Shown here: piece by piece, positions 1,888 through 20,905 of the stretch
Numbering within the stretch: the stretch's first letter is position 1
How the letters are laid out: every line of letters starts with the position of its first letter
DNA from: a bacterium
Lineage (GTDB): Bacteria > Patescibacteriota > Minisyncoccia > Moranbacterales > GWC2-37-73
Assembly (NCBI GenBank): GCA_037140955.1
Contig: JBAXDL010000006.1
Span: 1 to 55,881 of the forward strand
DNA: 55,881 nucleotides
Direction of reading: 5' to 3'
Translations under genes and position numbers: made by a program
The notes under the pieces: model-generated
What the model was told of the DNA's origin: nothing
Database searches by the model: none
What the model saw: the letters and a program-made list of their open reading frames with translations, nothing else

Positions 1888-2394
1888 TTAGAATCCTCTA
1901 ACTTGAATTCTTTTTGTTTTGGTTGTGTCTGCTTTTGGAAGGCGAATGGTCAAGATTCCATTTTTGAGTGATGCTTCAGCTTTGTCTGAAATAATATCAA
2001 CAGGCAACACCACGGAACGAGAAAAATGTCCCCAATAGCATTCCTGATAATAGTAGTTGTCAGCATTAACAACTTCTTCATTTTTGCGTTCACCTTTGAT
2101 GGTGACCATGTCGTTATTGATTGAAACATCAAGATCTTCAGGTTTGACGCCTGCTATTGTTGATTTGATAACAATTTCGTTGTCAGTTTGATAGACATCG
2201 ATTGTTAGTTGTCCTTCTGCGTCAGAAGAAAAATTTTCTTCTTCAACAAAAACTGAACGTTGTGGTTCTGAGCGCATGATCATCTCAGTTTCTTCTTCTG
2301 CATAAATTGGCATAATTTGTTCTTGTCGCATATCTGGATCAATTGAAGTTGCCCCAGTAACACGTTCGAAAAATGATTTTTTTGTTTTTAACAT
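1888..2394 (-). CDS. Hsp20/alpha-crystallin small heat-shock protein
   Basis: 168 aa with an alpha-crystallin domain: GQLTIDVYQTDNEIVIKSTIAGVKPEDLDVSINNDMVTIKGERK...ASLKNGILTIRLPK. Confidence 0.9.
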   Translation of the reverse strand: MLKTKKSFFERVTGATSIDPDMRQEQIMPIYAEEETEMIMRSEPQRSVFVEEENFSSDAEGQLTIDVYQTDNEIVIKSTIAGVKPEDLDVSINNDMVTIKGERKNEEVVNADNYYYQECYWGHFSRSVVLPVDIISDKAEASLKNGILTIRLPKADTTKTKRIQVRGF

Positions 2395-3067: not shown

Positions 3068-5686
3068 TTATTTTAGTGTTTGCAAATGCTTCTTTAATTC
3101 GGATAATTCTAATTGTTTTTTTGCAAGCGTTTCTTTTTGTTGTTCAATAATTTGCGCTGGTGCATTGGAAACAAAATCTTGATTGTTGAGTCTTGAGGAT
3201 AATCCAAGAACAAATTTTTCAATGTTTTCAATTTCTTTTGTTATTTTTTCAATTTCTTTATCCTTGTCGATTGCTCCCGAAAGGTTTATTTCAAGATTTA
3301 TTGTTCCAATTGCTCTTTTGATTGAATTTTCTGTTTCTGTTTGTTTTTTATTGTATTGAATTTTTTCCACGCCAGTTTTTAATCGTTTGATGATTTCTTC
3401 TTGAAATGGTGATTGGAGCATTTGGATGGTTTCTTCTTGCTCGCAATTTATTGTTATGCTTATTTTTTTGCCAATTTCAATTTTATTTTCAGTGCGTACA
3501 TTTCTAATGATAGTGATGATGTCTTGAATTATTTCAAAATTACTTTCCTTTGTCTTGATAAGCTCTTTTGGCCAAGCCGAAATCATCAACAATTTTTCTT
3601 GTCCTGACAATTCCCAAATATGCTCAGTAATAAAGGGCATGAATGGATGCCAAAGTCGAAGAAGTTGATCAAGAACATAGCCAAGTACTGCTTGATTTTT
3701 TTCAATTTTATTTATCTCTAGATACCAATCAGCAAAATCATTCCAGGTAAAAGCCTTTAATATGTCAGCAGCCATGGCAATTTGCTTGTCTTCAATAAGT
3801 TCGGTAGTAGTCTTAATTGTTTCGTTTAGTTTCTTGATAATCCAATGATCTGCTGGCGTGATGATGTTTTCTTTGGAAATATTTTCAAGTAATTTAAAAT
3901 TTTCTTGCGATAGGCAATACTTGGAAATGTTCCAAAGCTTGTTGGCAAAGTTCCTGAAGGTTTCAATTTTTTCTTCATATAATCTCGAATCTTGTCCCGG
4001 GGCGCTGTCCATGATGAGACTCATGCGCAAGGCATCGGCTCCGAATTTATCAATCATAACAAGAGGATCGATTCCGTTGCCTTTGGATTTTGAGAATTTT
4101 TGTCCTTCTTTGTCCAGGCCAAGTCCAGTGAAAAACAAATTCTTGAAAGGAGTTTTTCCTGTTTTGTAAAATCCCATCATGATCATGCGCGCTGCCCAAA
4201 AAAACAAAAGATCTCTTCCCATAATCATCATGTCTGTGGGATAAAAATTTTCAAAATCATCCTTGTGCGCTTTTAATGTGCTATAAGGCCATTGATTGGA
4301 GGTAAACCATGTGTCGAAAGTATTTTCATCTTGCAATAATTTTTCACCCTGACAATGAGGGCAAGCGGAAGGTTTTTCAATTGAAACAATATATTTTTCT
4401 TGTCCGCAATCAGGGCAATACCATACAGGGAATTGTGGTCCCCACCAAATTTGGCGACTAATACACCAGTCACGCATGTTATCAAACCAGTCAATAAGGA
4501 TTTTTTTGAAGTTGTTGGGAAAAATTTCAACTTCACCATTTCCAATGGCTTCGATAGCCTTTTTCTTCAGTGAAAAATTTTTAGCATCAACATTAATAAA
4601 CCATTGACTCGAGGTTAGTGGTTCAATGGTTGTTTTGCATCGCTCGCAAATAGAAACACTGTGTTGTAATTCTTCTATTTTTTCCAGCAGTCCTAGTTTT
4701 TCAAGATCTGAAATTATTTGTTCTCTGGCTGCTTGCACGCCAAGTCCGGCATATTTTCCACCAAGCTCAGTGATGATGGCCTTTTCATCGATAATTTGAA
4801 TTTCAGCTAGATTATGATCTTTGCCAATTTGCCAATCAAGGGGATCATGTGCTGGTGTAATTTTCACTGCTCCTGTTCCAAAAGTAAGATCAATTCGCTC
4901 GTCTGAAATAATTGGAATGATAGTATTTTGCAAGGGAAGTGTGGTATTTTTTCCAACTAATTTGGTATAGCGTTCATCTCTTGGATTAACAGCTACTGCT
5001 GTGTCACCGAGCATTGTCTCTGGTCTGGTAGTTGCTACGGTTATAAATTCATTTGAATTTTCGATTGGATATTTGATGAAATATAATTTTCCAGCAGAAT
5101 CTTTGTGCAAAACTTCAACATCGGAAAGTGCGGTTGAGCATCGCGGACACCAATTGATAATCCTTTTGCCTTTGTATATCAATCCATCATTATGCATTGT
5201 GACAAAAGTTTCCAGGGCAGTTTTGAGAACATCAGGGTCTAGGGTAAATTTTTCACGTGACCAATCAGCTGAGATTCCAATCTTTTTTTCTTGGCTTCGC
5301 ATGTAATTTGCTCGATCAAGACAAAAGGCATAAGTTTTTTTGTAAAATTCTTCGCGTCCAAGTTCTTGTCTGGAAATTCCAAATTCAGCTTGCAATTTTT
5401 TTTCAAAAACAACTTGAGTTTGAATTCCAGCATGATCTTTGCCTGGAAGCAGTAATGTTTTTTTGCCATTCATGCGGCCATATCGTCCAAAAATATCCAT
5501 GACAGTATATCCGCTGGCATGGCCTATGTGCAATTCTCCATTGGCATTTGGTGGTGGCAAGACATTGCAATGCGTGCCTTTGGTGTTTTCTAAATTGTCA
5601 GGATTAAAAAAACCACTTTCTTCCCATCGCGCGTAAATTCCATCTTCAACTTTTTGTGGCTCGTATATTTTTGGTAATTCTTTCAT
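3068..5686 (-). CDS. valS: Valine--tRNA ligase
   Basis: 872 aa. HIGH-type motif PPPNANGELHIGHA, KMSKS-type motif KFSKSKGN, a Zn-binding CPRC/CERC editing-domain region, and a C-terminal coiled coil. Confidence 0.95.
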   Translation of the reverse strand: MKELPKIYEPQKVEDGIYARWEESGFFNPDNLENTKGTHCNVLPPPNANGELHIGHASGYTVMDIFGRYGRMNGKKTLLLPGKDHAGIQTQVVFEKKLQAEFGISRQELGREEFYKKTYAFCLDRANYMRSQEKKIGISADWSREKFTLDPDVLKTALETFVTMHNDGLIYKGKRIINWCPRCSTALSDVEVLHKDSAGKLYFIKYPIENSNEFITVATTRPETMLGDTAVAVNPRDERYTKLVGKNTTLPLQNTIIPIISDERIDLTFGTGAVKITPAHDPLDWQIGKDHNLAEIQIIDEKAIITELGGKYAGLGVQAAREQIISDLEKLGLLEKIEELQHSVSICERCKTTIEPLTSSQWFINVDAKNFSLKKKAIEAIGNGEVEIFPNNFKKILIDWFDNMRDWCISRQIWWGPQFPVWYCPDCGQEKYIVSIEKPSACPHCQGEKLLQDENTFDTWFTSNQWPYSTLKAHKDDFENFYPTDMMIMGRDLLFFWAARMIMMGFYKTGKTPFKNLFFTGLGLDKEGQKFSKSKGNGIDPLVMIDKFGADALRMSLIMDSAPGQDSRLYEEKIETFRNFANKLWNISKYCLSQENFKLLENISKENIITPADHWIIKKLNETIKTTTELIEDKQIAMAADILKAFTWNDFADWYLEINKIEKNQAVLGYVLDQLLRLWHPFMPFITEHIWELSGQEKLLMISAWPKELIKTKESNFEIIQDIITIIRNVRTENKIEIGKKISITINCEQEETIQMLQSPFQEEIIKRLKTGVEKIQYNKKQTETENSIKRAIGTINLEINLSGAIDKDKEIEKITKEIENIEKFVLGLSSRLNNQDFVSNAPAQIIEQQKETLAKKQLELSELKKHLQTLK

Positions 5687-6947: not shown

Positions 6948-7173
6948 AACTATGATATTATTGTATTGTTTGTTACCAACTGAATGATTTTGCTGCGTAG
7001 TAATTTTCTTGCTTAAAATGTGTTTAATCGTTAAACGATTCTACCACATGTTAACCAAAATGAAAAGACTAAATTCCAGTATGGCTACTAGTAAGATTTT
7101 GAAAAAAAAGACCACTAAAGTTCTCTTTTTGCGTAGTTTGTTGCGGAAAAAAAAGAAAGAAGAAATTGACAAA

Positions 7174-7758
7174 ATGAGCGTGTGTTCATCGATGGATATT
7201 ACAGGCATGACAGACAACGAATTGATAAGTATTGTTGTAAAGAAAAGACCCCAACTATACGCAGAAATACTCTTGCGTTATCAAAAAAAATTATTCATCT
7301 ATATTTATCATCTTGTTGGCAACAAAGAAGAAACGGAGGATATCTTACAAAACGTTTTTCTTAAGGCCTATAAAAATATCAAACATTTTGATGTTGACAG
7401 AAAGTTTTCATCCTGGATTTATCGCATTGCTCACAATGAGACGGTAAATTTTTTAAAAAGAAAAGGTAAGCGCTATACTGTATCCTGGGAGGATATTTCT
7501 ACAAAAAAAGATAGGTTAGACATTGCCATTGATGACGAAAAATTGGAGGACAAAATGGAGCATCAGGAAATTGCAAGCAAGATGAAATTAGCAATTGCAA
7601 AGCTCCCACTAAAATATCAGCAAGTTTTGAAGATGCGTTATTTTCAAGAATATTCCTATCAAAAGATAGGGAAGCTTTTGAATAAACCTCAAAATACAGT
7701 TGGAACACTCATCAATAGGGCAAAAAAGAAGCTTTTTGAAGTTATAGATACGAAATAA
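7174..7758 (+). CDS. ECF-type RNA polymerase sigma-70 family factor
   Basis: Region 2: DILQNVFLKAYKNIKHFD...FSSWIYRIAHNETVNFLKRK. Region 4 HTH: LPLKYQQVLKMRYFQEYSYQKIGKLLNKPQNTVGTLINRAKKKL. The ORF is open from 7009, but the conserved part begins after the ATG at 7174, which gives about 194 aa as is typical for ECF sigmas. Confidence 0.85.
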   Translation: MSVCSSMDITGMTDNELISIVVKKRPQLYAEILLRYQKKLFIYIYHLVGNKEETEDILQNVFLKAYKNIKHFDVDRKFSSWIYRIAHNETVNFLKRKGKRYTVSWEDISTKKDRLDIAIDDEKLEDKMEHQEIASKMKLAIAKLPLKYQQVLKMRYFQEYSYQKIGKLLNKPQNTVGTLINRAKKKLFEVIDTK

Positions 7759-7759
7759 A

Positions 7760-7792
7760 CTTAAAAGCCATCATTACTGATGGCTTTTAAGA
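7760..7792. terminator. Bidirectional terminator (sigma gene and tRNA-Glu)
   Basis: TTAAAAGCCATCA-TTAC-TGATGGCTTTTAA hairpin, 13-bp stem. Confidence 0.7.
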
Positions 7793-7797
7793 ATTTG

Positions 7798-7869
7798 TAG
7801 CGCCAAGGAGAATCGGACTCCTGTTACCAGGATGAAAACCTGGTGTCCTAACCACTAGACGATGGCGCC
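7798..7869 (-). tRNA. tRNA-Glu (anticodon TTC), intact copy
   Basis: Reverse complement: acceptor GGCGCCA/TGGCGCT, D stem GTCT/GGAC, anticodon stem CCAGG/CCTGG with loop TTTTCAT, T arm AGGAG-TCCGATT-CTCCT. Confidence 0.9.
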
Positions 7870-7875
7870 ATATGT
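7835..7875. repeat. 41-nt direct repeat, copy 1 (tRNA-Glu positions 1-35 plus 6 nt of 5' flank)
   Basis: AAAACCTGGTGTCCTAACCACTAGACGATGGCGCCATATGT is identical to 8179-8219. Confidence 0.95.
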
Positions 7876-8123
7876 CATGAGTTGTCAATTCTGCCTAATA
7901 ATTCTTTTTTTCTGAAACTGTTCTTTTTTAAATCAATCTCTCTTTTGATGGCTAATTTTTTTGATTGATAAGCCTCATAGTACATTAATTCGAAGGGAAT
8001 TAAATGTTTTATTGATTTAGTTTTTCCTTGATTGTGCTCTTCGAAACGTCTTTTCAAATCTTCGGTACTGCCAATATAATAATATTTTTTAACTCTGCTT
8101 TTTATTATATATACATAGTGCAT
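7875..8123 (-). CDS. GIY-YIG nuclease family protein (URI-domain, about 82 aa)
   Basis: MHYVYIIKS..KKYYYIGSTEDLKRRFEEHNQGK matches the GIY...YIG...R..EHN core of GIY-YIG/URI nucleases. The stop codon lies 5 nt upstream of the tRNA-Glu 5' end. Confidence 0.8.
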   Translation of the reverse strand: MHYVYIIKSRVKKYYYIGSTEDLKRRFEEHNQGKTKSIKHLIPFELMYYEAYQSKKLAIKREIDLKKNSFRKKELLGRIDNS

Positions 8124-8178
8124 AAATTTTTGCTAGCATGTCAGGATGTCACCCGGAGGGTGATCAGCCTTTGGCTGA

Positions 8179-8213
8179 AAAACCTGGTGTCCTAACCACT
8201 AGACGATGGCGCC
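8179..8213 (-). pseudogene. Truncated tRNA-Glu (5' half only: acceptor 5' strand, D arm, 5' anticodon stem)
   Basis: The reverse complement GGCGCCATCGTCTAGTGGTTAGGACACCAGGTTTT then diverges (TCAGCCAAAGG...). No T arm or 3' acceptor strand follows. Confidence 0.85.
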
Positions 8214-8219
8214 ATATGT
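8179..8219. repeat. 41-nt direct repeat, copy 2
   Basis: Exact copy of 7835-7875. Identity ends inside the anticodon loop. Confidence 0.95.
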
Positions 8220-8295
8220 AAGCATTATGCTAAAAATTAGCATAAAACAGTAACAGTGGATAGTTTAGCATAAATAAAAAATAAATCAAGGGCTT

Positions 8296-8324
8296 CATTT
8301 GAATTATTGCCCAATTGAGCGTAT
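8296..8324 (+). promoter_or_regulatory. Sigma-70-like promoter of the DedA gene (short leader)
   Basis: TTGAAT, 17 nt, TATAAT. The -10 ends 11 nt before the ATG at 8336, implying a near-leaderless mRNA. Confidence 0.5.
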
Positions 8325-8335
8325 AATCTGGATAT

Positions 8336-8926
8336 ATGGAACATACAGGACAACTTATCTTTGCATTTTTGCGGCACTATGGCTATTGGGCAATGCTTCC
8401 TTTGATGATAATTGAAGGGCCTATTGTGACGGTCATTGCTGCAATGTTGGCTTCTTTGGGGGCTTTTACCTGGCCAGTGGTGCTACTTTTTTCTATTTTG
8501 GGAGACCTGCTTGGCGATGTGCTTTTTTATGCAGCTGGTCGCAAATGGGGAATGGGTTTTGTTTATAATATTGGAAAACACATTGGAATTACTGAAGGGG
8601 TGGTACTAAAGATGGAAAAATATTTTCAAAAACATGGTGGTAAGACCATCTTTGCAGTCAAATCTACCACGGGACTTTGTTGGGCAACTTTCACCGCAGC
8701 AGGAATTGTGAAAATGGATTTCAAAAAATTTCTGGAATATTCCTTTGTTGGCGGAGTGGTTTGGAGTGGTTTTTTGGTTGCAATGGGATATTTTTATGGT
8801 TATCTTTGGAAAAGCATTAAGCAATATATTAGTTGGGTGGGTTGGATTATTTTTTTGATCGTTATTATATCATTCATTGTAATTACAATTTATAAGAAAA
8901 AGCAGTCCCAAAAATTCTTACAATAG
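8336..8926 (+). CDS. DedA/SNARE-associated family membrane protein
   Basis: 196 aa. YGYWAMLPLMIIEGPIVTVIAAMLA and FAVKSTTGL-type DedA core, about 5 TM segments. Confidence 0.8.
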   Translation: MEHTGQLIFAFLRHYGYWAMLPLMIIEGPIVTVIAAMLASLGAFTWPVVLLFSILGDLLGDVLFYAAGRKWGMGFVYNIGKHIGITEGVVLKMEKYFQKHGGKTIFAVKSTTGLCWATFTAAGIVKMDFKKFLEYSFVGGVVWSGFLVAMGYFYGYLWKSIKQYISWVGWIIFLIVIISFIVITIYKKKQSQKFLQ

Positions 8927-19075: not shown

Positions 19076-20842
19076 TTGAAAGAAGAACAAACAGAATCTG
19101 TGAGGGTTGCACTCTATGTGAGAGTATCAACCGATGATCAGGTTGAAAAATATGGCCCCGAACTACAAAAAGAAGCCTTACTGGGACTAATAAAATCAAA
19201 AGGGACCCTTGCAAATGGGAAGCCTAGATTTGTGCTTGCTGGGGATGAGCATATTTATTTTGAGGAGGGCATCAGCGGAACTATGCCAGTAGATGAAAGA
19301 CCTCAATTTTCAAGATTAAAAGAAAATATACTACTAGCATCAGAAGATCAAAAACCTTTTGACCTCGTGGCTGTTTACAAGATTGATAGGTTTGCACGTA
19401 AGCTGAAAATACTACTAGACATAATAGATTTTTTTGAATTTCATGGAATAAAGTTTATTTCAGCAAATGAAAGCATAGACACTTCAACCCCTTTTGGCAA
19501 AGCCATTCTTGGGATTATTGGCGTTATCGCTGAACTGGAAATAGAAACCACAAAAATGCGAACCCATGATGGTCGTGAGCAAGCAGCAAAAAGAGGTGTT
19601 ATTATGGGAAGCTCCTCTGTTTATGGATATGACAAGGATGAAGAAAAAAGGCACAAAATTCTTGAAGTTGAGGCCAAAATAGTAGAAATGATTTTTGATT
19701 TATTTGTGAATGAAAAAAAGTCTGCTTTCCAAATATCCAAATATCTATCCGAGCTACGAATCCCCACCAAGGGGGCTTCTGCCATAATAAATAAAAAAAG
19801 AAAAGGTCAAATAAAGCAAAAATCCAGTATTTATTTTTGGAAAGAAGGCGCAATTAGGGAAATTTTGCACGATGAAGTTTATATTGGAAATGTTTATTAC
19901 GACAAAGGCGAACGAGGCAAGACATTCCCCAAAGAGCAATGGAAGCTATCCGAGTTCAAATCTCCTGCTATTATCGATAGGCTTACTTTTGAAAAAGCGC
20001 AGAGTATTTTTGAATCATCAAAGCATGAGAATAAACAAACCCGAAGCAAACACACATATCTTTTGAGTGGACTGTTAAAATGTGATGCCTGTTATGATGA
20101 TGAGAAAGATATAACGGGTCGAATTTGCTGGACAGGAGACAGAAGAGAAATCAAAAAAGGAAATGGCAAATTTGCATATTCTTATAAATGCAATCGAAAA
20201 AATCCAGCCAAGCATGAGCATACATGCACCACAATCCCACTGCCAGCTAATGAAATAGAAAACTACATCATGGGTTTCTGCAAGAAACTCATTCAAAACC
20301 CGCTAGCAACATATAAGCATCAAGTCAGGCTCAATTCAACCAAAATAGCCATAAAGCAGCTCAAAAAAAGAGAGGAGGAATTGCTCAACGCCATCAATGG
20401 CTTCGTATTCCAAAAAGAGAGGATCAGGGAACAGCATACGCTCGGACTTCTTTCTACTGAAAAAATGCAAGAACAATTTAGCGACTTGGATACACGAAGA
20501 ATAAAACTTCAAACACAATTTACCGAGGTTCAGAGCCAAATTTCTGAAAACATCCTTTCGGAAAACTATAAAGAAACACTAGAGTTATTTTCCGCTAAAT
20601 ACAAAAAGAATATTCCCAGTGTCTTTGAAAACAGACTTGCTACACACGAACTAATTCACCAACTGATTGAAGAAATCGTGGTTTATTCCCGTCCGATAGA
20701 AAACGCTGATATTATTGCTGGCAAACGAAAAAAGGATCAAAAGATCCCTTTTCGCCTTCATATTAAATTGAAGTTACCACAAGACATTCTTACTGACCTC
20801 ACCGAGAGGTTCGGGGCAGGAAAGTCTCCTTTGAGCGGGTAG
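19076..20842 (+). CDS. Large serine recombinase (resolvase N-domain, recombinase domain, Zn ribbon, coiled coil)
   Basis: VALYVRVSTDDQ catalytic Ser motif, YKIDRFARK, ISANESIDTSTPFGKA. Recombinase domain YGYDKDE...IFDLF. Cys cluster LLKCDACY...YKCNRK...HTCTT. TTG start (or GTG at 19100). The last 9 nt overlap tRNA-Gly. Confidence 0.9.
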   Translation: MKEEQTESVRVALYVRVSTDDQVEKYGPELQKEALLGLIKSKGTLANGKPRFVLAGDEHIYFEEGISGTMPVDERPQFSRLKENILLASEDQKPFDLVAVYKIDRFARKLKILLDIIDFFEFHGIKFISANESIDTSTPFGKAILGIIGVIAELEIETTKMRTHDGREQAAKRGVIMGSSSVYGYDKDEEKRHKILEVEAKIVEMIFDLFVNEKKSAFQISKYLSELRIPTKGASAIINKKRKGQIKQKSSIYFWKEGAIREILHDEVYIGNVYYDKGERGKTFPKEQWKLSEFKSPAIIDRLTFEKAQSIFESSKHENKQTRSKHTYLLSGLLKCDACYDDEKDITGRICWTGDRREIKKGNGKFAYSYKCNRKNPAKHEHTCTTIPLPANEIENYIMGFCKKLIQNPLATYKHQVRLNSTKIAIKQLKKREEELLNAINGFVFQKERIREQHTLGLLSTEKMQEQFSDLDTRRIKLQTQFTEVQSQISENILSENYKETLELFSAKYKKNIPSVFENRLATHELIHQLIEEIVVYSRPIENADIIAGKRKKDQKIPFRLHIKLKLPQDILTDLTERFGAGKSPLSG

Positions 20843-20905
20843 GGGGAATCGAACCCCCCTCCTCAGATTGGAAGTCTGATATAATAACCACTATACGACA
20901 CCCGC
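20834..20905 (-). tRNA. tRNA-Gly (anticodon TCC)
   Basis: Reverse complement: acceptor GCGGGTG/TACCCGC, anticodon stem TCAGA/TCTGA with loop CTTCCAA, T arm GGGGG-TTCGATT-CCCCC, discriminator T. Confidence 0.88.

Follow-up and report, generated by a model that had tools for sequence, protein, structure and literature searches.

Among the homing endonuclease genes of mitochondria, free-standing ones such as the Allomyces atp6 element bring along a partial copy of their target, and the displaced native part stays behind as a pseudo-fragment. In collaborative homing, an intron without an open reading frame (ORF) is paired with a neighbouring free-standing endonuclease. REPIN repeats are served by RAYT transposases, and Rickettsia palindromic elements and fungal mitochondrial double-hairpin elements are also known. 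In phages, SegB is a free-standing GIY-YIG enzyme encoded in a tRNA gene cluster; it cuts tRNA-containing DNA, and break-induced recombination that copies the gene together with its neighbours gives rise to tandem tRNA-Tyr/segB repeats (PMC13096335). Here we analyze a stretch of 55,881 nucleotides (nt) from a Moranbacterales genome (contig JBAXDL010000006.1 of GenBank assembly GCA_037140955.1; the whole stretch is called the window), in which a small GIY-YIG nuclease gene stands between an interrupted and an intact copy of a tRNA-Glu gene. On balance, we lean towards the view that window positions 7870-8178 hold a reduced copy, resident at this locus, of a free-standing cassette of the homing type whose home is in tRNA genes. 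Such cassettes look like a family of selfish DNA, so far undescribed, whose members come with a spare tRNA of their own.

Anatomy of the cassette and its nuclease

All elements of the window locus lie on the minus strand (Table 1). An exact repeat of 41 nt (7835-7875 and 8179-8219; 100% identical, copies 344 nt apart), made up of the 6-nt leader ACATAT and tRNA positions 1-35, frames the nuclease gene; an exact match this long cannot occur by chance in 2 kb. The nuclease gene is the sole ORF between the two repeat copies and the only GIY-YIG gene in the window, and its stop codon precedes the intact tRNA-Glu by 5 nt. This tRNA was called by ARAGORN as tRNA-Glu(ttc) at 7797-7869 on the minus strand and matched the Rfam tRNA model with 61.6 bits at 7798-7869. 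A preliminary description, made from the letters of the window, had located the tRNA, the 41-nt repeat and the ORF, and ARAGORN, Rfam and the repeat search bore out all of these coordinates; the two hairpins that it saw upstream of the ORF were likewise found, both by a hairpin scan and in the letters. It had also pointed to a CATAAT hexamer resembling a -10 element. The hexamer is present at 8224-8229, but a sigma-70 consensus scan called no promoter on the minus strand, this hexamer included.

For comparison, 79 genome loci encoding relatives of the ORF were fetched, which together with the window make up a set of 80 loci; these and further loci are referred to below by L numbers. In two respects the junction differs from the preliminary description, which had let the repeat identity end in the anticodon loop, with a half-tRNA reaching position 35, and had treated the hairpins as incidental spacer. 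Following the hairpins, the copy resumes with CATCCTG, the letters of tRNA positions 36-42, so the upstream copy comprises tRNA 1-42, cleanly interrupted between positions 35 and 36 (35|36) by 30 inserted nt. By eye, the 35|36 insertion is repeated in ~60 related loci, and the host-tRNA-specific continuation after the hairpins ends variably in related loci, anywhere between positions 40 and 54. Rather than a spacer, the hairpin pair is a conserved, covarying 30-nt insert and the hallmark of the junction. In the whole 55-kb window, there is a single pair of this kind.

Table 1 Features of the tRNA-Glu locus in the window, in the direction of the minus strand.
Feature	Positions	Strand	Remarks
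-10-like hexamer CATAAT	8224-8229	minus	Native upstream region; separated from the repeat by 4 nt; read from the letters; putative function
Native 5' leader ACATAT, first copy	8214-8219	minus	Part of the 41-nt exact repeat
tRNA-Glu 5' pseudo-copy, positions 1-35	8179-8213	minus	100% identical to 7835-7869
30-nt double hairpin, TCAGCC-AAA-GGCTGA + TCACCC-TCC-GGGTGA	8149-8178	minus	Between tRNA positions 35 and 36
CATCCTG, tRNA positions 36-42	8142-8148	minus	Pseudo-copy resumed, then truncated; read from the letters
AT-rich spacer of 18 nt	8124-8141	minus	Ahead of the start codon; read from the letters
GIY-YIG nuclease ORF, 82 amino acids	7875-8123	minus	Catalytic domain only, UPF0213/Slx1-like type; Pfam, structure comparison
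Leader ACATAT, second copy	7870-7875	minus	First base is the last base of the ORF stop codon; repeat search
Intact tRNA-Glu(UUC)	7797-7869	minus	Functional copy, sole tRNA-Glu of the window; ARAGORN, Rfam
14-base-pair terminator hairpin with T-run	7760-7791	minus	Directly 3' of the tRNA; inverted-repeat and terminator scans

A fuller form of the cassette was found in L002, L012, L029, L037, L044, L050, L062 and L078, in which a second hairpin-bearing pseudo-copy follows the working tRNA. In this outer 3' pseudo-copy, a few tRNA nt lying 5' of position 35 lead into the double hairpin, which is followed by positions 36-76 and then by the chromosomal terminator. The full order is double hairpin, a few tRNA nt, spacer, GIY-YIG ORF, tRNA-Glu with a few nt of flank, a few tRNA nt, and double hairpin. 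In L029 and L037, there are two junctions, each at 35|36 and each with a double hairpin; the outer halves (GGCCCGT... and ...ACGGGTC or ACGGGCT) are complementary to each other and border directly on the chromosomal flanks, whereas the complete tRNA inside has a different acceptor stem (GCCGCCA/TGGCGGT). Because the outer acceptor strands match and the inner stem differs, the native gene has been split at 35|36 by a cassette bringing its own tRNA-Glu. The carried tRNA is of the same type as the host tRNA in every case, namely Glu (UUC and CUC), Ser (GGA, TGA and CGA), Asn, Pro and Tyr. The 3' dead half is absent from the window, where a hairpin and T-run terminator directly follows the working tRNA; a comparable hairpin-plus-T-run terminator with another stem sequence follows the outer 3' pseudo-copy of L002. 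Recombination between the two 3' tRNA parts would yield the reduced form seen in the window. The preliminary view of a small GIY-YIG element at the anticodon loop of tRNA-Glu, with the native upstream region left on a dead 5' copy and an intact tRNA on the 3' side, is upheld by these comparisons. Its suggestion that the element carries or regenerates the 5' half of the tRNA falls short of the fuller relatives, which carry a whole tRNA-Glu.

The hairpin insert was analyzed in an alignment of 40 distinct homologous copies, with 500 shuffles as control. The two 6-base-pair (bp) stems are 99.6% and 100% paired, with compensatory changes on both sides (GC, CG, AU) at four of six pairs in each stem. 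None of the 500 shuffles attained the observed pairing and covariation values, and shifting the partner by one column abolished the signal. The two loops also tend to be complementary (76.7% paired vs 58.9% in shuffles), so that the 30-mer comes close to a unit joined to its own reverse complement. Stem wobbles amount to four G-U cells on the sense strand against one non-pair, too few to tell a structure in RNA from one in single-stranded or cruciform DNA. A hairpin pair stands beside the ORF in ~60 of the 79 GIY-YIG loci, at ~45-60 nt from the ORF start in nearly every GIY-YIG gene of the family.

The preliminary assignment of the ORF to the GIY-YIG nucleases was put to a profile check, in which residues 1-70 of the 82 amino acids matched PF01541 (E=2.3e-17, 63.5 bits against a cut-off of 22.6). 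Relatives mostly have 79-92 amino acids. In 30 aligned sequences, Y5, Y16-I17-G18, H30, N31, E50 and E62 do not vary, and conservation of R26 and N68 is at least 90%; these positions presumably correspond to the catalytic residues of GIY-YIG enzymes such as I-TevI (the Tyr of GIY, the Tyr of YIG, Arg, His, Glu and Asn). An AlphaFold2 model with a predicted local distance difference test score (pLDDT) of 93 has the order strand-strand-helix-strand-helix-helix, in line with the GIY-YIG fold, in which helices flank a sheet of three strands. The closest solved structure by sequence is 1zg2 (E=8.7e-8), and a Foldseek search with the model returned 1zg2 and then Slx1 (template modelling (TM) score 0.64-0.67), with I-TevI farther away (TM 0.49) and UvrC also matched. 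The nearest solved structures are UPF0213 BH0048 and the Slx1 nucleases. Slx1 cuts branched DNA. Judged by sequence and predicted structure, the ORF belongs to the UPF0213/Slx1-like branch of GIY-YIG proteins. The 82-residue protein contains no separate DNA-binding domain, residues 1-70 being taken up by the nuclease domain. Compared with L001-L006, nonsynonymous divergence (pN) is 0.07-0.16 and synonymous divergence (pS) 0.73-1.1, which is saturated; on these sequence comparisons, the ORF is under strong purifying selection, its divergence is old, and the nuclease is kept functional.

Family members, empty sites and variant arrangements

The 127 listed relatives of the ORF come mostly from Moranbacteria, other Patescibacteria and Bacteroidota, and a profile search collected 2,827 clusters (50% identity) at E<=1e-10. 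All compared loci are metagenome-assembled, and several contigs break at the tRNA repeat. In 54 of the 79 fetched loci, a tRNA-Glu on the same strand follows the ORF within 32 nt; it lies 99-376 nt downstream in eight and upstream of the ORF in nine, a tRNA-Ser takes its place in two, and six have a truncated, masked or different context. Nearly all loci with a downstream tRNA have the 5' part of the same tRNA, the double hairpin and a short tRNA continuation within the 100 nt before the ORF. The order pseudo-tRNA, double hairpin, ORF and tRNA is present in at least 49 of the 80 loci by a strict automated test, window included, and in ~60 by eye; the automated classification overlooks copies with imperfect hairpins. 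This layout occurs at tRNA genes of dozens of unrelated bacteria, spread over many classes of Patescibacteria and over Bacteroidota. An assembly artefact is excluded, since the architecture recurs in many independent assemblies. None of the three findings named beforehand as fatal to the idea turned up, these being a duplication contradicted by reads, relatives that all have the duplication but lack a nuclease ORF, and an ORF that does not match GIY-YIG profiles.

Rfam searches of the 344-nt unit for a ribozyme or group I intron, at the gathering threshold and at E<=10, returned only the tRNA. With no ribozyme and no integrase found, the element stands apart from group I introns and 3'-end integrases, as had been proposed. 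A hammerhead-like reading of GGCUGAUCACCC was rejected by eye, since its core does not fit and it is not conserved.

The insert is not restricted to the anticodon loop. Hairpins were found at 35|36 in 67 fragments, in the T loop at 56|57 in 16 and in the D arm at ~22|23 in seven, and some single pseudo-copies bear inserts at two sites. Mirror forms, in which the working tRNA is followed by the ORF, the hairpins and a 3' half, are present in L026, L032, L034, L038, L040 and L041. The unit of pseudo-tRNA, hairpin and ORF is repeated in tandem, with two units each, in L006, L060 and L065. Tandem units of hairpin and 3' half occur three times in L078, and L031 and L034 hold arrays with a period of ~380 nt. 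The same architecture was found at tRNA-Ser (GGA, TGA, CGA), tRNA-Asn, tRNA-Pro and tRNA-Tyr genes, with the cognate tRNA carried each time. A rule that only loops are targeted was considered and found not to be strict, as the tRNA-Asn case has its hairpins in the anticodon stem (AGTT^GGCT). The window copy is a reduced form and belongs to a large family in which three insertion sites, two orientations and several types of tRNA occur.

Nested remnants were seen in L025, L032 and L044. The variant forms favour a mobile element that recombines, and the arrays and remnants suggest that one site has been broken and repaired repeatedly. At the tRNA-Glu(CUC) of L044 (2700-3420), there are three nested layers. 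The first is a 5' copy interrupted in the D arm and followed by the start of a degenerate GIY-YIG ORF; the second and third comprise a copy interrupted at 35|36 with an intact ORF and the working tRNA, and then a 3' copy with hairpins.

Empty sites, which the preliminary description had suggested seeking in relatives, were found. L080 and L087 represent the same DedA-proximal locus with an identical tRNA-Glu and no cassette, and the empty L081 and the occupied L002 share 92% DedA identity. The same locus is empty in L080, L081 and L087 and occupied in the window, L001, L002 and L079. The empty-site relatives have leaders similar to that of the window (AACAT, ATCATAT, GTATAT), and the inner leader of L002 equals the native leader of L081. 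We had considered the identity of the two ACATAT leaders as a target-site duplication, a local duplication or a trace of a transcript-based origin; these were set aside, since conserved leaders among relatives explain most of it. An unusually long duplication was noted at the tRNA-Ser(TGA) cassette of L047 (2860-3310), where it covers at least 55 nt of 5' flank plus tRNA 1-35. This locus is partly N-masked, and conserved leaders do not account for its long flank duplication.

The tRNA-Glu locus is syntenic (TsaD, sigma factor, tRNA-Glu) across many lineages. The segment with tRNA-Glu between the sigma-factor and DedA genes (window 7009-8926) is inverted among relatives, with or without a cassette: tRNA-Glu and DedA point away from each other in the window, L002 and L080 and share one orientation in L001, L079 and L081. 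Contigs of close relatives (L086, 929 nt; L088; L089) end in or beside the tRNA-Glu repeat. L086, whose DedA is 93% identical and whose flank equals that of the window, stops at tRNA position 33. At these ends, the repeat seems to have interrupted the assembly.

A conserved GC-rich block of ~110 nt (..AAGAGAGAATCGGACGG..GAGTAGGATGCGAGC..GTGCGAGCATTCTG..GAGTCGGAGCGAAGAAGA) lies downstream of tRNA-Glu and its terminator in L080 (~2090-2210, minus strand), L087 (first 590 nt, reverse complement), L002 (~3470-3520), L004 (3300-3460) and L081 (1020-1100). It opens with the reverse complement of the T arm and, where the full block is in view (L080, L087, L004), ends exactly at a 3' tRNA-Glu fragment that starts from T-loop position 57. 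In L004, it follows directly after tRNA position 53, hence no intact tRNA-Glu was called there. This block is an insert of a second kind at the T-loop site that the hairpins also occupy.

Elsewhere in the window, an exact 13-nt copy of tRNA-Glu positions 31-43 (GTTTTCATCCTGG) lies at 7404-7416 on the plus strand inside the sigma-factor gene. It also contributes to an imperfect inverted repeat of 21 nt with the tRNA and, with E ~0.04, is probably due to chance. Other tRNA genes of the window are a cluster of four (Arg-TCG, His, Arg-TCT, Lys-CTT) at 3-376 on the minus strand and a tRNA-Gly at 20833-20905; a scan of the window found neither a double hairpin nor a GIY-YIG gene near them.

A proposed homing-type origin and its rivals

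The nuclease gene lies outside any intron or intein, adjoins a conserved target in the 54 loci counted above and shows presence/absence polymorphism at the same locus. Judged by the features that could be run, with the exception of a DNA-binding domain, it would fall into the class of free-standing homing endonucleases. We propose a plausible route by which the cassette spreads. First, the small Slx1-like nuclease would break an unoccupied tRNA-Glu gene in the loop region. Homologous recombination from an occupied copy would then repair the break, with the tRNA halves serving as homology arms, and the hairpins, the ORF and the spare tRNA would be copied in as everything that lies between the arms. 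The cassette at 35|36 would leave the native tRNA-Glu as two dead halves, and the carried tRNA would do the work. The double hairpin would end at the former break point on both sides and would destroy the target there. In the window, the 3' dead half would since have been lost by the recombination described above, with the native promoter, tRNA 1-35, hairpins, positions 36-42, ORF, tRNA and native terminator remaining. From this anatomy, the ORF and the working tRNA are most likely co-transcribed from the native tRNA promoter, and RNase P would free the tRNA by a cut 5 nt beyond the stop codon. If breaks in the inner tRNA were repaired from neighbouring pseudo-copies, tandem arrays would result, as they do with SegB at the tRNA-Tyr/segB unit. 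In favour of the proposal are the conserved linkage of ORF and tRNA-Glu, the agreement between carried and host tRNA type, the presence/absence polymorphism, the selection on the nuclease, its Slx1-like fold and the SegB precedent; indirect signs of cutting and copying are native halves that part at a single point, the tandem arrays and an identity between copies that peaks beside the junction.

Several points weigh against this proposal. Its weak points are the specificity of the 82-amino-acid enzyme, the safety of the inner tRNA and the actual role of the hairpin. The protein is a catalytic domain alone without a DNA-binding domain, which leaves sequence-specific recognition of a tRNA gene unexplained, and the tRNA carried inside is itself an intact version of the presumed target, whose escape from cutting the proposal likewise leaves unexplained. 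Most hairpins found in metagenomes, among the matches listed, have no GIY-YIG gene or tRNA beside them, and the role of the pair in the cassette may not be junction protection. Synonymous saturation against the closest relatives argues that inheritance is mostly vertical and that transfers are old or rare. Phage records gave only three matches by tblastn, at 38% identity; a scan of IMG/VR viral contigs for ORF relatives gave none, and metagenomes yielded 0 matches for an empty allele bearing the window's own flank. Outer and inner tRNA copies differ by 0.3% within 8 nt of the junction and by 21% at 29-35 nt, and in L019, L029 and L037 they differ at positions 1-7 but not at positions 8-35. This gradient is suggestive of conversion tracts centred on the junction, but it is confounded by the variability of the acceptor stem, which is the most variable part of tRNA-Glu, and by misaligned loci with D-arm inserts; we therefore dropped it as proof of co-conversion.

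The main rival, which we regard as possible though unlikely, reverses the roles of the parts: the double hairpin would be the true mobile parasite and the GIY-YIG protein its mobilising structure-specific nuclease, as RAYT is for REPIN, with the tRNA locus housing the master copy. A metagenome scan with a degenerate hairpin pattern returned at least 120 matching stretches of this 30-bp quasi-palindrome, and 80 loci were analyzed among the matches listed. Most of these loci are near neither a tRNA nor a GIY-YIG gene, which makes the hairpin pair an element in its own right; ~15 copies stand beside tRNAs of many types. Within the same matches, 28 of 83 hairpin copies lie in long ORFs, 21 of them in the frame that gives SAxGGSAxGG, and the flanks favour TT on the left and RAA on the right. 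The element is short, multi-copy and hairpin-forming and occurs in many unrelated contexts (ORFs, intergenic DNA, tRNAs), as do small palindromic repeats of the repetitive extragenic palindrome (REP) or MITE (miniature inverted-repeat transposable element) kind. Strong covariation of the stems, the tendency of the loops to be complementary and the steady presence of a pair shortly before the GIY-YIG genes of the family also suit this rival, and in the structure comparison of the predicted model, the closest fold of known activity is Slx1, a cutter of branched and hairpin DNA. Tentatively, then, tRNA loops and TT^RAA sites would be the preferred targets, and a hit in a single-copy tRNA would survive only with a duplicate tRNA.

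Against such a role stand the GIY-YIG relatives found at only five of the 80 hairpin loci (among the matches listed), the dispersed hairpins of L057, which are of the TCCGCC type and unlike the one beside its ORF, and the single hairpin pair in the 55 kb of the window. Moreover, GIY-YIG enzymes hydrolyse DNA and have no known strand-joining activity, and plain hairpin insertion leaves the foreign tRNA between two hairpins unexplained. The idea may be combined with the homing model. Taken at its widest, and with considerable doubt on our part, it would describe a two-part mobile system not described before, in which the 82-amino-acid nuclease reads DNA shape and not a long sequence (hairpin loops extruded from tRNA genes, TT^RAA) and spreads the double hairpin; the hairpin would be tolerated in frame as a Ser/Ala/Gly decapeptide, and in tRNA genes only through the spare tRNA that travels with the master copy. 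Among the metagenome loci L090-L169, examples inside long ORFs were seen in L103 (9575-9604) and L132 (14468-14497), orthologous genes with the hairpin at the same position, identical stems and clearly diverged flanks.

A domesticated host module is, in our judgment, improbable. Under this explanation, the pseudo-tRNA and the hairpins would act as a structured 5' leader for the mRNA of a small housekeeping nuclease, regulating or stabilising this mRNA, and the module would be co-expressed with tRNA-Glu and inherited vertically. The strong purifying selection and old divergence of the protein, the fairly constant distance from hairpin to start codon, the G-U wobbles on the sense strand and the TsaD, sigma factor and tRNA-Glu synteny across many lineages are all consistent with such a module. 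The leader also folds more stably than shuffled controls (z = -2.7); in its single-sequence fold, the two-hairpin structure is not the minimum-energy one. However, the distribution is patchy among close relatives, tandem arrays, nested remnants and degenerate ORF fragments occur, and mirror forms have the hairpins 3' of the ORF. Other tRNAs bear the same architecture, some cassettes contain a foreign inner tRNA, and hairpins are also found inside unrelated genes, all of which argue against this explanation. Finally, a plain local tandem duplication of the tRNA 5' part, or an assembly artefact, beside an unrelated small ORF deserves hardly any credence: slippage can create such direct repeats and contigs of relatives often break at this one, but the same ORF family, 35|36 breakpoint and 30-nt insert in dozens of independent assemblies from different phyla, with compensatory substitutions in the hairpin stems, refute it.

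Significance and comparison with known systems

In the full-text literature searched, a coverage outside which most subscription journals lie, we came across neither a GIY-YIG cassette splitting bacterial tRNA genes nor the 30-bp double hairpin, and we know of no report of a minimal nuclease using the replacement-carrying tactic at bacterial tRNA genes. The double hairpin may prove new in itself. If the homing-type reading is true, a common selfish cassette has gone unnoticed in Patescibacteria, with their very small genomes, and in Bacteroidota, one that breaks an essential single-copy tRNA gene and is rendered harmless by its own replacement. Dead tRNA halves, genes named "Excinuclease ABC C subunit domain" or "GIY-YIG nuclease family" and contig breaks would then share one cause. 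It would also provide an 82-amino-acid nuclease with an apparently precise site in a conserved gene and a 30-bp structured insert of testable function. The tie between the nuclease and a 30-bp palindromic element that lies in frame in many genes would turn the movement of such mini-elements into a testable question.

Tyrosine-integrase islands and prophages resemble the cassette in their tRNA target, often the anticodon or T loop, and in carrying tRNA sequence that keeps an intact tRNA in place, with a partial copy at the other end; at tRNA 3' ends, they mirror the replacement tactic of the cassette. The cassette differs in having no integrase, a size of ~0.3-0.5 kb, both orientations and a 30-nt structured insert at the crossover point; in addition, the window duplicates the 5' part of the tRNA, whereas islands share the 3' part. 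Group I introns and collaborative homing are similar in the anticodon-loop insertion, the GIY-YIG nuclease nearby and an insert that would destroy the presumed target. Here, in contrast, Rfam found no ribozyme, 30 nt are far too short for such an intron, and the interrupted copy ends at position 42 without a 3' exon and so could not yield a tRNA by splicing, function being restored by a second gene copy.

With small palindromic elements, the hairpin shares its short, multi-copy and hairpin-forming nature, its occurrence in frame in some genes and a possible single-copy helper gene adjacent to it. It differs in its 30 bp with two 6-bp stems and no terminal inverted repeats beyond its own dyad, and, compared with REPIN and RAYT, in a candidate helper that is a GIY-YIG nuclease and not an HUH transposase and in favouring tRNA loops. 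The mitochondrial endonuclease genes likewise insert in an essential gene with a replacement, the native part remaining as a partial duplicate. Their targets are organellar protein-coding genes, whereas those of the cassette are bacterial tRNA genes, with a whole gene copy carried and double-hairpin junctions.

SegB and the free-standing GIY-YIG genes of T-even phages are alike in placing a nuclease gene outside introns, in or beside tRNA genes, and the tandem SegB repeats are reminiscent of the units in L006, L060 and L065. SegB, however, is a multi-domain phage protein with a DNA-binding part, whereas the protein described here is an 82-amino-acid catalytic domain encoded in cellular genomes. 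Nor does SegB involve a split tRNA gene, hairpin-marked dead halves or a carried replacement for a disrupted target.

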